The translations under genes and the position numbers were made by a program. The notes beneath the pieces are model-generated. The model worked only from the letters and a program-made list of their open reading frames with translations. It had not been told where the DNA came from and searched no databases. Shown here piece after piece: positions 26,019 to 28,834 of a DNA stretch of 64,000 bases (its first letter is position 1; every line of letters begins with the position of its first letter). This stretch comes from Escherichia phage vB_VIPECOMC06. The stretch lies in the sequence record PQ416618.1. One strand, written 5' to 3'.

Positions 26019-26305
26019 TTCTTTATGCTAAAGTAAAATCTGTCGAGAACGGATATGAAAGCGATCAACGTGCAGCTAAAGCACTAGTCGATGACTATGG
26101 TATTTTGACTATTTTTGAAGTTGAAAAGGTTTACATCGACCGTTCATCTTCACAGGTTAAATTACTCTGTGAAGATGATAAATTTAACACAGTTAACTTT
26201 GATTTCTTTATTGAAACAGAAAAAGGCCCTCTTGAATATGATATTTTCAAGAATCCTTTGAAATTACGTTGCATTGAATATAATTACATTAATATGGTAC
26301 GGTGA
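26015..26305 (+). CDS. Hypothetical protein
   Basis: 96 aa; ATGA start/stop overlap with the upstream ORF. Confidence 0.5.
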   Translation: MILYAKVKSVENGYESDQRAAKALVDDYGILTIFEVEKVYIDRSSSQVKLLCEDDKFNTVNFDFFIETEKGPLEYDIFKNPLKLRCIEYNYINMVR

Positions 26306-26309
26306 GTAA

Positions 26310-26825
26310 ATGAATATTTGTTTAGGCAGTACAATTCCTAAAGGTTACGTAATTGATGTCACTACTTGGGAAAATGACGGTGACAACTATAAAACCAAAA
26401 CATTATTTGGTGTAGAAGAGCATGAGCTCCAACAGTTTAAATATCTCTTGAAGAAATTTAAGAGCCGTCATTCTAGCACCAAAGCCGAACGTTATTGCGG
26501 TAATACACCATTCAGTGATTGCTCGCTTTTAATCTATGAATACTTGGTTGAAGGACTGTTCTCAGACCAGCTTTATCCAGAATTCATTAAAAAGGTCTTT
26601 GATATTGAAGTCGACCTCGGTAATAAATCTGAAGAAGACGAATCACGTGTATTTGACCTGTTCCGTGAGAATGGATATTTGGTATCAGAAGGTCTCACTG
26701 ATATTCTTGGTCATGCTTCTGAATATTATGATTATGATTTCTTGCGTGTAGTTGAACGTGTCGAATTTGCTTATATTGAAGAAGAAATCGTTTTGCCAAC
26801 CGTTAAAATGATTGATTTGCTTTAA
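26310..26825 (+). CDS. Hypothetical protein
   Basis: 171 aa ORF with GGTGAG SD. Confidence 0.5.
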   Translation: MNICLGSTIPKGYVIDVTTWENDGDNYKTKTLFGVEEHELQQFKYLLKKFKSRHSSTKAERYCGNTPFSDCSLLIYEYLVEGLFSDQLYPEFIKKVFDIEVDLGNKSEEDESRVFDLFRENGYLVSEGLTDILGHASEYYDYDFLRVVERVEFAYIEEEIVLPTVKMIDLL

Positions 26826-26904
26826 GAATTATGTGTTATTATTAATTCATACCCTCTATTACCAAAGGTGCTCTAAAGTGCCTTTCATAATAGAAAGTTA
26901 TTAA

Positions 26905-26976
26905 GGCCCTGTAGCTCAATGGGAGAGCTGTCAGCTCATAACTGATAGGTAGCTGGATCGAAACCAGCCAGGGCCA
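26905..26976 (+). tRNA. tRNA with CAU anticodon (Met or lysidine-modified Ile)
   Basis: Cloverleaf readable by eye: acceptor GGCCCTG/CAGGGCC, D-arm GCTC-AATGGGA-GAGC, anticodon stem GTCAG/CTGAT with loop CTCATAA, T-arm GCTGG-ATCGAAA-CCAGC, discriminator A; no encoded CCA. Confidence 0.8.
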
Positions 26977-27017
26977 TATTTTGGGAACATAAATACTCTT
27001 AGAAATAGGAGATATTT

Positions 27018-27686
27018 ATGTTCCATTACACTTATAAAATAACAAATAAAATTAATAATAAAATCTATATAGGCGCTCATTCTACCGAAAATTTAGATGA
27101 TGGATATATGGGTTCTGGTAAATTATTAAAAAGAGCCCAAGACAAGTATGGTATAGAAAATTTTAATAAAGAAATTTTAGAATTCTTTGACACTAAAGAG
27201 CAGATGTTTGAAGCCGAGAAAAATATCGTAAACGAAGAATTTTTGAATCGTTCTGACGTATATAATTTAAAACTTGGTGGCGAAGGTGGTTGGGACCATT
27301 TAAATACTTACGAATTTAATTATAAAAAGAAAGAAGCCTCTATTAAAGGAGCCAAAGCTTTTAAAGAGAGATTTGATTCTGATGAAGTGCTTCAAGAAAA
27401 ATATCGTAAAATGGGTTCAGAGAAATTAAAGCATCTGTGGACTTTACCTGAATACAGAGAAAAATTCTCTAGCACTAAGTCGTTTTTAAATAAAAATCAT
27501 ACTTCCGAAACTATTGCTAAAATGAAAGATACCCACGCCAGGAACAAACACCAACAAGGCGAGAAAAATTCCCAGTTTGGTACTATGTGGATTCATTCAT
27601 TAGAAGAAAAGAAATCTAAGAAAATTAAGAAAACCGATCCTATTCCGGAAGGTTGGATTAAAGGCTATAAACTAAAATTTAAGTGA
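27018..27686 (+). mobile_element. GIY-YIG homing endonuclease (SegB-like) immediately 3' of the tRNA
   Basis: 222 aa; N-terminal YTYKITNKINNKIYIGAHS GIY-YIG motif; C-terminal NUMOD-like basic repeats; T4 segB (~221 aa) also lies in the tRNA cluster. Confidence 0.75.
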
Positions 27687-27693
27687 GGAAAAT

Positions 27694-28038
27694 ATGAAAG
27701 GCAATATTTATCTGGTAGTTCATGATTTAACGTTTTATTTTAACGAATATGATACAGTTATTTCTCATCGATTGATTAATTCGCTGTATCAGCACGCCGA
27801 TTACATTTATGTCCAAAATGAATTTGGACATTGGAAGTTCATTAAAAATCGTTCTGGGTTAACTAGTTTTGAATACTTTGACCGTAAAGACCTTTTAAAC
27901 GAAATCCCATTGCAACATCGGTTCCAGAAACGCGAATCATTATATTATTGCCGTCATATACCAAATGCCGAATGTGTTTATGAAGCGATTAATCTATGGC
28001 GTCGGCGTCGAGAGCAAATTAATGATATGCCAAAATAA
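27694..28038 (+). CDS. Hypothetical protein
   Basis: 114 aa ORF with GAGGAAAA SD. Confidence 0.45.
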   Translation: MKGNIYLVVHDLTFYFNEYDTVISHRLINSLYQHADYIYVQNEFGHWKFIKNRSGLTSFEYFDRKDLLNEIPLQHRFQKRESLYYCRHIPNAECVYEAINLWRRRREQINDMPK

Positions 28039-28040
28039 GA

Positions 28041-28337
28041 AACCGGGTCGCTACCGGTAAGTCGTCGGACTGATGTTCCCTGCGTAAGGACTGGTCTTAA
28101 TAAATCTTTATGATTTGTTAATATCCCCTTACATCACAGCAGAAACGGCGCACAGAATTATCGATTCGAGGAAATATCTTTGCCGTAAGCCGAGTAGCGT
28201 TTTTGACGGAACGTTCGGATATGGTCGAGATATGGCCTTTTAAAAATATTGAGTAGCGTCAACTGCTTAATAACCGGGTTCGAATCCCGGCGTTTCGTAC
28301 AAACACTTGCCTTGCAGGTGGAACCCCGACAAGGTAT
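28041..28337 (+). ncRNA. ORF-free candidate structured/stable RNA region containing a tRNA-like T-arm
   Basis: About 300 bp with no ORF of 60 aa or more; ccgggTTCGAATcccgg at 28274-28290 is a canonical tRNA T-stem-loop but I could not pair a full acceptor stem; T4 encodes stable RNAs C and D next to its tRNAs. Confidence 0.3.
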
Positions 28338-28366
28338 AGCCCCTTCCGAAAGGTTGGGGCTTTTTG
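28338..28366 (+). terminator. Rho-independent terminator
   Basis: agcccc-ttccgaaaggtt-ggggct hairpin followed by TTTTT; a near-identical copy is at 43427-43455. Confidence 0.7.
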
Positions 28367-28498
28367 GTATCTAGGCCTTTCAGGGCCTCTCTAGGCATCA
28401 TTTAGTTTATACCCTTTATAATATATTATCCTACCTTTTAATTTCCTCTCCCTGCCCTAGAATTCCATAAAACTTTTTTTAAAAATTTTCACAAAACT

Positions 28499-28528
28499 GT
28501 TTACATCCCTGTTCTTCTATGGTACTAT
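28499..28528 (+). promoter_or_regulatory. Early promoter cassette (GTTTAC ... TACTAT)
   Basis: ctgtttacatccctgttcttctatggtactat then caactactg...ggagaataaaATG. Confidence 0.5.
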
Positions 28529-28570
28529 ATCAATATCAACTACTGATACAGAAACAACTTGGAGAATAAA

Positions 28571-28834
28571 ATGGATAATTACGGTGAACTGTTCAACTTC
28601 TTTATGAAATGCGTTCCAGAAGATTTCGGACGTACAGTGAATGATATTAAAGTTATTGGACCTGAACACCCGGTGTATGAAACCTATGCAGTAATGGGTA
28701 ATGAAGATGGACAGTGGTATACAATTAAAGTTGTGATTAATATGTTCTCGGCTGAAGGCTACGCCAAATCGTCTACCAAAGTTTACCATGATAACGATTT
28801 TGATGCGGAAGATTATTTCAATAATATGAAATAA
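28571..28834 (+). CDS. Hypothetical protein
   Basis: 87 aa from MDNYGEL with GGAG SD. Confidence 0.45.
   Translation: MDNYGELFNFFMKCVPEDFGRTVNDIKVIGPEHPVYETYAVMGNEDGQWYTIKVVINMFSAEGYAKSSTKVYHDNDFDAEDYFNNMK

Follow-up and report, generated by a model that had tools for sequence, protein, structure and literature searches.

Comparative structural model of the RNA D and RNA C orthologs in a T4-type Escherichia phage, with a predicted tRNA-derived fold and putative kissing loops in RNA C

Phage T4 encodes two small stable RNAs, RNA C and RNA D. In the T4 reference record (RefSeq NC_000866), rnaD ('small, stable RNA; species 2 RNA') occupies positions 71053-71171 and is 119 nucleotides (nt) long, rnaC ('species 1 RNA') occupies positions 70908-71046 and is 139 nt long, and the transcription order is given as the transfer RNA (tRNA) gene tRNA-Arg, rnaD, a 6-nt spacer and rnaC. 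Uzan and Miller listed the function of both RNAs as unknown in 2010 (PMC3014915), and in 2022 Wolfram-Schauerte et al. detected T4 RNAC on a northern blot as a late RNA that is abundant and, in their words, 'of yet unknown function' (PMC9697503). When phage BW1 was evolved on a semi-permissive host in a study of 2025, a convergent adaptive single-nucleotide polymorphism (SNP) was reported in its rnaD (PMC12685909), and the literature through 2025 still gives the function of both RNAs as unknown (PMC3014915, PMC9697503, PMC12685909). Here we describe the corresponding locus in a 64,000-nt stretch of DNA (hereafter the window) from Escherichia phage vB_VIPECOMC06 (sequence record PQ416618.1), where an earlier reading of the letters (the original prediction) had noticed a structured region that could be a stable RNA or a decayed tRNA.

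The window is a segment of a T4-type phage genome. Its part from 27900 to 28560 matched 774 phage records, with phiEC1 (94.9%) and RB69 (94.5%) as the top matches, and more than 800 phage records carry the region in conserved form, some of them (RB10, RB27 and GiZh) with rnaC and rnaD annotated. By alignment and coordinate mapping to the T4 genes, we found that the orthologs of rnaD and rnaC lie next to each other on the forward strand (Table 1). The results showed that T4 rnaC and its counterpart in the window share 137 identities in 139 positions over the full length, and that T4 rnaD aligns end to end, with the 5′ 48 nt and the 3′ 25 nt nearly invariant and the centre variable. The rnaD-rnaC arrangement of T4 and the window was also found in RB69 and Lutter. 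Compared with shuffled sequences, the folding z-scores were -4.55 for rnaC, -2.66 for rnaD and -5.62 for the whole region. The neighbourhood of stable RNAs C and D in T4 had been named in the original prediction, and the alignment to the annotated T4 genes bears this out; the prediction had treated the region as one candidate RNA, and its structured nature stood, whereas the region proved to hold two RNAs, followed by a trailer and a terminator.

Open reading frames (ORFs) of at least 60 amino acids had been described as absent from the region, and this was borne out between the end of a 114-amino-acid ORF at 28038 and an ORF start at 28559. An Infernal scan of Rfam had been proposed as a check; Rfam 15 at gathering thresholds gave no family for either RNA, with tRNA-Met as the sole passing hit in the window, and at E-values up to 10 only chance-level hits (tRNA-Sec, isrK and a small nucleolar RNA) were obtained for 28035-28370. 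ARAGORN called no tRNA or transfer-messenger RNA (tmRNA) in this region. We consider it very probable that the locus comprises the RB69/T4-type orthologs of RNA D and RNA C, standing last in the tRNA cluster ahead of its intrinsic terminator, and that RNA C is tRNA-derived and has kissing loops. As knowledge of both RNAs goes back to the 1970s, the element is not new but textbook T4 biology, and its finding in a T4-like genome is ordinary. What is new is the comparative structural model proposed here for RNA C, which includes an acceptor-like helix, U-CCA/U-ACA termini and a co-varying kissing loop.

Table 1. Features of the stable-RNA locus and the associated tRNA gene in the window
Feature	Position	Strand	Basis
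tRNA-Met(CAU)	26905-26976	+	ARAGORN; Rfam RF00005, 62.4 bits
rnaD ortholog (species 2 RNA), about 120 nt	28035-28154	+	Alignment to T4 rnaD
AU-rich spacer GAAUUA between rnaD and rnaC	28155-28160	+	Flank table
rnaC ortholog (species 1 RNA), 139 nt, predicted four-arm tRNA-derived fold	28161-28299	+	T4 identity, covariance model R1, covariation
Acceptor-like helix, 5′ strand CGAUUCG, rnaC nt 2-8	28162-28168	+	Pairs with CGUUUCG at 28291-28297
rnaC arm I, nt 9-78, interrupted hairpin of about 27 bp	28169-28238	+	Compensatory changes in each of helices 2-5
Loop 1 UUGACG, apical in arm I	28203-28208	+	Exact reverse complement of loop 2
rnaC arm II, nt 87-112, 10-bp hairpin with loop CGUCAA (loop 2) at 28257-28262	28247-28272	+	Compensatory change in all 10 pairs
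rnaC T arm CCGGG-UUCGAAU-CCCGG	28274-28290	+	Fold, covariation
Acceptor-like helix, 3′ strand (28291-28297), U138 (28298) and ACA (28299-28301)	28291-28301	+	Flank table
Trailer hairpin between rnaC and terminator, -11.3 kcal/mol	28308-28336	+	Fold, alignment
Rho-independent terminator of the tRNA/stable-RNA operon	28338-28366	+	Hairpin of -16 kcal/mol, U run

Homologs of rnaC were gathered by BLAST, pattern scans and a covariance model (R1), which gave 35 distinct sequences from about 10 T4-like lineages. They came from Tequatrovirus, Mosigvirus, Karamvirus, Kanagawavirus, Moonvirus, Gelderlandvirus, Marfavirus and Jiaodavirus, and from Edwardsiella phage PEi20, Pectobacterium phage PM2 and Erwinia phage COW86c. 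Folded as a single sequence, rnaC of the window had a minimum free energy of -50.2 kcal/mol and formed a four-way junction. RNAalifold recovered the same fold from 19 distinct rnaC sequences, with 41 pairs, 20 of which showed compensatory change; 98.6% of the cells were paired in these sequences, compared with 36-50% when the 3′ partners were slid by 1-3 columns. An alignment of 34 sequences was fitted to the nested model, and the results showed compensatory change in 32 of its 47 pairs, while none of 500 shuffles reached any of the observed measures. Folding together with homologs, another check that had been proposed, thus gave a conserved, covariation-supported secondary structure. Judged from these alignments, RNA C is a tRNA-derived RNA with a covariation-supported, four-arm fold.

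In this layout, arm I is followed by an 8-nt A/U junction, and only one nucleotide lies between arm II and the T arm. The segment GAGTAGCGT, which had been noticed as duplicated, does occur twice, at 28192-28200 and 28251-28259, and its copies are the 5′ strands of the arm I and arm II hairpins. A 9-mer repeat is expected by chance in about 330 bp with a probability of about 0.2 (rough estimate), and the first copy is not conserved in divergent homologs, so the duplication carries little weight and the repeat as such is probably incidental. We had also considered pairing of the GAGUAGCGU repeats with the rnaD loop (CGCUA), and this was dropped, as it involves only 5 nt and rnaC mostly occurs without rnaD.

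The same alignments bear on the idea that the locus encodes small proteins, as many GenBank records annotate. ORFs of 34-44 amino acids are present on both strands, and coding sequence (CDS) features stand here in many records; within the locus of the window, the longest ORFs were 42, 41, 44 and 34 amino acids long, most of them with a TTG start. These mostly TTG-started frames, their lengths and their boundaries differ among T4, Moon and the window, and the Moon ORFs run into annotated tRNAs. Within the region, close relatives are separated by 1-nt and 2-nt insertions or deletions, the substitutions among the homologs track base-pairing rather than codons, and Pfam found nothing for the neighbouring small ORFs, which leaves a coding role for the locus with hardly any probability. 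In many T4-like genome records, we observed short CDSs labelled 'hypothetical protein' across rnaC and rnaD.

The tRNA-like part of RNA C is formed by its two ends. The T-stem-loop CCGGGTTCGAATCCCGG, recognized in the original prediction, is present with a 5-bp stem, a 7-nt loop and a folding energy of -7.9 kcal/mol, and the exact 11-mer GGTTCGAATCC occurs only once in the 64 kb; GGTTCAAATCC at 908-918 was a chance match without a stem. No complementary acceptor stem had been recognized at that time. In fact, 28162-28168 pairs with 28291-28297, and this helix was overlooked because its 5′ strand sits 105 nt upstream of the T arm. The acceptor-like helix joins nt 2-8 of rnaC with nt 131-137 and contains five Watson-Crick pairs and two U.U mismatches in the window; it abuts the T stem with no nucleotide between, stacking directly on it.

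Comparison of the homologs revealed compensatory changes at three positions of the acceptor-like helix. At pair 4-135, T-even phages have A-U and 20 other sequences have G-C. Jiaodavirus has Watson-Crick pairs throughout the helix, with U5-A, A6-U and a change of C7-G132 to U7-A, and in PM2 the helix is fully standard with one G.U wobble, with U5-A134, U6-A133, G4.U135 and a change of C2-G137 to A-U. In the T arm, pair G116-C128 also appears as U-A, C-G or U.G among the homologs, and the T loop of the window fits UUCRANY. The nucleotide U138 is invariant. Marfavirus, Jiaodavirus and PM2 encode CCA directly after it, and the window, T4 and the other lineages have ACA there. As read from the alignment, the ends of RNA C resemble the layout of a tRNA, with a 7-bp acceptor, a putative discriminator and CCA in three lineages (ACA here). 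Because CCA is present in three divergent lineages, the CCA end is likely ancestral. The segment CCTGGTTCGAGTCCAGGCGTTC, covering the T arm and 3′ strand of Karamvirus and Marfavirus rnaC, is identical over 22 nt to the corresponding part of a Jiaodavirus tRNA-Ile, and this identity hints at an origin of RNA C from a tRNA gene. The same tRNA-Ile was hit weakly by model R1 (24.6 bits).

A different tRNA-like structure was considered for the 3′ 94 nt (28206-28299), which could be a tRNA with a long variable arm and an acceptor stem made of 28206-28213 and 28291-28298. The segments ACGGAACG and CGUUUCGU are able to pair in T-even phages, the Rfam tRNA-Sec model gave 16.6 bits (E = 7.1), and the record of phage G4507 annotates a 'tRNA-Lys(UUU)' at this place. 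Also counted for this structure is the heptamer CUUUUAA at 28237-28243, the same as in the anticodon loop of E. coli tRNA-Lys(UUU). However, the proposed stem shows no compensatory change and is broken in the other lineages, where 9 of the 19 sequences have A.C and C.U, U.U and U.C also occur, and its 5′ nucleotides co-vary within arm I instead. The heptamer is limited to T-even phages, with CUUUGAA, CUUAUAA and CUCAUAA in other lineages, ARAGORN finds no such tRNA, and the annotated T4 RNA has 139 nt rather than 94. A 94-nt tRNA is therefore extremely improbable, and the four-arm fold over all 139 nt is the reading that we retain. We observed that the arm I/arm II junction of T-even phages (28237-28243) reads CUUUUAA, and a role of this junction as a PrrC decoy is speculative, the motif being confined to T-even phages. 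In G4507 (L026, 1455-1548), the 3′ 94 nt of rnaC carry the mis-annotation 'tRNA-Lys(ttt)'. From the comparisons above, the small ORFs and the 'tRNA-Lys' annotated over the locus are artefacts.

The loops of arm I and arm II are exact reverse complements of each other. All six loop-loop pairs are standard in each of the 34 aligned rnaC sequences, and both loops are nearly invariant, whereas the stems below them vary freely. Where the loops do change, they change in a coordinated manner, giving UUGGCG/CGCCAA in Marfavirus and UUGCAG/CUGCAA in Jiaodavirus; loop pair 46-99 occurs as A-U, G-C and C-G, loop pair 47-98 occurs as C-G and A-U, and complementarity is thus maintained through three compensatory changes. 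Model R1 does not include the loop-loop pairing and recovered the Jiaodavirus homolog independently of it. A scan with a loop-independent pattern found no variant having non-complementary loops. Because the loops change together and stay complementary, the sequences indicate that they pair as a kissing-loop helix, either in cis or between two molecules.

This co-variation also bears on the suggestion that RNAs C and D are trans-acting, base-pairing small RNAs (sRNAs) whose loops find their partners in mRNAs of the host or the phage. The term 'small regulatory RNAs' is used for them by some authors (PMC9697503), the loops are exposed as well as invariant, and the convergent adaptive rnaD SNP of phage BW1 (PMC12685909) counts in the same direction. 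In contrast, the loops of RNA C co-vary so as to stay mutually complementary, which external pairing would not predict, and T4 has no characterised sRNA that acts in trans (PMC3014915). We regard the sRNA explanation as very improbable overall; it is disfavoured for RNA C, and for RNA D it is compatible with the explanation given here, in which RNA C is a tRNA-derived RNA with kissing loops.

Several points weigh against this explanation. In PM2, the complementarity of the loops covers only the central GACG/CGUC, giving a kissing helix of 4 bp. An intramolecular kiss is sterically demanding with arms that differ as greatly in length as about 27 bp and 10 bp, and the pairing may take place within one molecule or in a dimer. 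The UUCRANY consensus of the T loop is lost in the CIP9 clade (UGCAUGC). The T4 annotation places the 5′ end of RNA C one nucleotide upstream of the first helix pair and the 3′ end at A139 with no CCA, so processing by ribonuclease P (RNase P) and a CCA end are both only putative in T-even phages; the RNA ends given here for the window were transferred from this annotation. Some of the rnaC sequences were collected with patterns requiring 5′ and 3′ motifs, and the covariation counts rest on about 10 independent lineages, so the independent covariation events are far fewer than the cells. Classical deletion work in T4 reportedly found the tRNA region dispensable in laboratory hosts, and for this reason any function of RNA C and RNA D is taken to be conditional.

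The reported dispensability of the region also counts for the explanation that the locus is a decayed tRNA pseudogene plus spacer DNA, with the T arm as a relic and a functionless RNA. No tRNA finder or Rfam tRNA model accepts the region, and its T arm and 3′ strand are like those of a real phage tRNA. Against such decay, the compensated pairs include all those outside the tRNA arms and are spread across about 10 lineages, the loops stay nearly invariant as the stems change, the length is kept at 138-143 nt among the homologs, and the T4 locus yields a stable, abundant RNA of about 140 nt in infected cells (PMC9697503). A pseudogene is thus highly improbable. Of the two possibilities that the original prediction had left side by side, a predicted stable RNA is the one that stands, as a tRNA-derived ortholog; the label 'decayed' fits less well because the non-tRNA parts are structurally selected across about 10 phage lineages.

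RNA D was compared in 20 distinct homologs from Tequatrovirus, Mosigvirus and Dhakavirus, in which 98.3% of the cells were paired and five pairs showed compensatory change. It begins with a 5′ hairpin at 28042-28058 (ACCGG-GUCGCUA-CCGGU), whose closing pair is A-U, G-C or G.U among the homologs, followed by a long stem-loop closed by 28061-28067 with 28146-28153, the 3′ part of which is invariant. The apical hairpin is hypervariable, with unrelated sequence in four types and the same fold in each. No tRNA-like features were seen in RNA D. As side observations, the 3′ end of rnaD, GAAACGGCG (28142-28150), is complementary at 8 of 9 positions to 28288-28296 in the acceptor-like 3′ strand of rnaC, and AACCGGGT begins both the 5′ hairpin of rnaD (28041-28048) and the T arm of rnaC (28272-28279). 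These shared and complementary segments could reflect alternative pairing in a dimeric precursor, a common origin, or chance.

The two RNAs differ in distribution, and RNA D is absent from most lineages that carry RNA C. In Dhakavirus JS10 (L006, 1503-1720), we observed that rnaD is kept and rnaC is lost, with rnaD directly joined to the trailer hairpin and terminator. In the window, rnaC was the sole hit of covariance model R1, with 156 bits. Degenerate patterns matched many GC-rich sequences in IMG/VR, metagenomes and GTDB genomes, all of which the covariance model rejected, and no homolog of rnaC was found in bacterial genomes by these scans. A fourth pattern scan gave nothing beyond further Jiaodavirus variants, and loci fetched through the neighbouring e.6-like protein came from close relatives only, plus PM2. 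A 40-kb stretch of Slopekvirus KP15 gave no hit, but it contains no tRNA cluster and is therefore uninformative. An unrelated viral contig (IMGVR_UViG_3300043119_000378; L073, 4152-4252) carries GTAAGTCGAGTAGCG and, about 90 nt further on, the T-arm-like ATCGGTTCGATTCCGAT, with no match to R1.

The genomic setting of RNA C is a tRNA cluster. RNA C always lies directly downstream of a tRNA or RNA D, and it often lies directly upstream of another tRNA. The order tRNA-Trp/rnaC/tRNA-Gly was found in Karamvirus, Gelderlandvirus and Erwinia phage COW86c, tRNA-Met/rnaC/tRNA-Gly in Moon, tRNA-Pro/rnaC in Jiaodavirus, and tRNA-Ser/rnaC/tRNA-Trp in PM2. On its 5′ side, rnaC is flanked by an A/U-rich spacer of about 5-6 nt in most lineages, and on its 3′ side by CAA (CAU in PM2); in relatives, an A/U-rich spacer like the GAAUUA of the window separates rnaC from the CCA end of the upstream tRNA. 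In the window, tRNA-Met(CAU) is the only tRNA that ARAGORN found in the 64 kb, and it belongs to the same gene cluster as rnaD and rnaC. It is followed by an ORF of 222 amino acids with a GIY-YIG domain (27018-27686) and by the 114-amino-acid ORF (27694-28038). The former is a Seg-type homing-endonuclease ORF (Pfam PF01541, 1.3e-6) and stands, within 26977-27693 of the window, where RB69 has tRNA-Arg; the order in RB69 is tRNA-Met, tRNA-Arg(UCU) and ORF150c, and the phage of the window has no tRNA-Arg. We also observed that tRNA-Met(CAU) of the window is strongly unlike that of RB69 in the D arm, anticodon stem and T arm, with the T loop AUCGAAA compared with UUCGAAU. Since a homing-endonuclease gene adjoins it, the tRNA-Met gene may possibly have been co-converted or replaced.

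Downstream of rnaC, the strong rho-independent terminator that had been noticed from the sequence was confirmed as a hairpin at 28338-28361 (AGCCCC-UU-CC-GAAA-GG-UU-GGGGCU) followed by UUUUU, at which termination is predicted. A simple terminator scanner failed to call it, as U.U mismatches interrupt its stem, and the homologous hairpin carries a terminator annotation in the Lutter and G4507 records. Around 28326-28340, the trailer is without a segment of about 11 nt (small GCAA-loop hairpin) that is found in T4, RB69 and Lutter, and the next ORF (28559-28834) is the positional counterpart of e.8 in RB69 and T4. Scanning 26300-28700 for sigma-70 promoters and terminators gave no convincing promoter, and the only terminator call was the 5′ hairpin of rnaD on the wrong strand; the T4 late-promoter motif TATAAATA was absent near the locus.

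Acceptor/T-arm minihelices are substrates of RNase P, and AU-rich spacers in tRNA operons are sites of ribonuclease E (RNase E). For this reason, we suggest that both RNAs would be co-transcribed with the tRNAs and excised by the tRNA-maturation enzymes of the host. RNase P may cut where the acceptor-like helix begins on its 5′ side, the AU-rich spacers may be the sites of action of RNase E and 3′ exonucleases, and the tRNA-like module would define the ends of RNA C and confer stability.

A tRNA-like end module, two structurally selected arms and a conserved loop-loop contact lead us to propose, tentatively and as one possibility that we hold to be less probable than its absence, that RNA C is a non-decoding mimic of tRNA. 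As such, it would bind or titrate a factor that recognizes tRNA. A fuller version, to which we give somewhat less credence, is a dedicated mimic whose kissing loop locks its shape or dimerises it and which would be made late to occupy or decoy a tRNA-recognising factor of the host. Candidate targets of such a decoy are a tRNA-targeting defence nuclease, a 3′-end-modifying toxin, RNase P and other tRNA-processing enzymes. If true, the decoy reading would finally explain what an RNA described 50 years ago does. RNA C and RNA D could matter because their function is unexplained in the literature of 2010-2025, because neither has an Rfam family, and because the locus is routinely mis-annotated. 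The comparative model offers experimental handles in the acceptor-like helix, the U-CCA/U-ACA termini, the co-varying arms and the co-varying kissing loops, and with it the locus could be annotated automatically and correctly in the phage collection, where roughly 1,000 records match it.

The closest described system is the rnaC/rnaD locus of T4 itself, which shares with the window the order rnaD, 6-nt spacer, rnaC, trailer and terminator, and also the location, with these elements closing the 3′ end of the tRNA cluster ahead of e.8. Unlike in T4, where rnaD directly follows tRNA-Arg, the window and RB69 have an ORF (114 amino acids) whose stop codon overlaps the start of rnaD; moreover, the window lacks tRNA-Arg and its trailer is shorter. 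RNA C resembles a canonical tRNA (RF00005) in its 7-bp terminal helix, which stacks on a T stem of 5 bp with the loop UUCGAAU, in the location of its gene within a tRNA cluster and in flanking spacers like those of the neighbouring tRNAs; at its 3′ end, an unpaired nucleotide precedes CCA or ACA. Unlike a canonical tRNA, it has no D arm, no 7-nt anticodon loop and no variable region, its arm I follows the acceptor helix without a linker, it is 139 nt long, and it is detected by neither ARAGORN nor RF00005. The acceptor/T-arm module is reused in non-decoding RNA in the tRNA-like domain of tmRNA and in the bacterial and phage Y-like RNAs of the YrlA type. RNA C differs from tmRNA in having no tag ORF, no pseudoknot ring and no tmRNA call by ARAGORN or Rfam, and the termini of YrlA pair into the Ro-binding stem, not into an acceptor helix; nothing indicates homology of RNA C to either of them. 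In TAR-TAR* of human immunodeficiency virus (HIV) and RNA I-RNA II of ColE1, hairpin loops of 6-7 nt can pair fully. The loops of RNA C are likewise fully complementary, with the difference that both of them stand in one RNA, on arms of unequal length.

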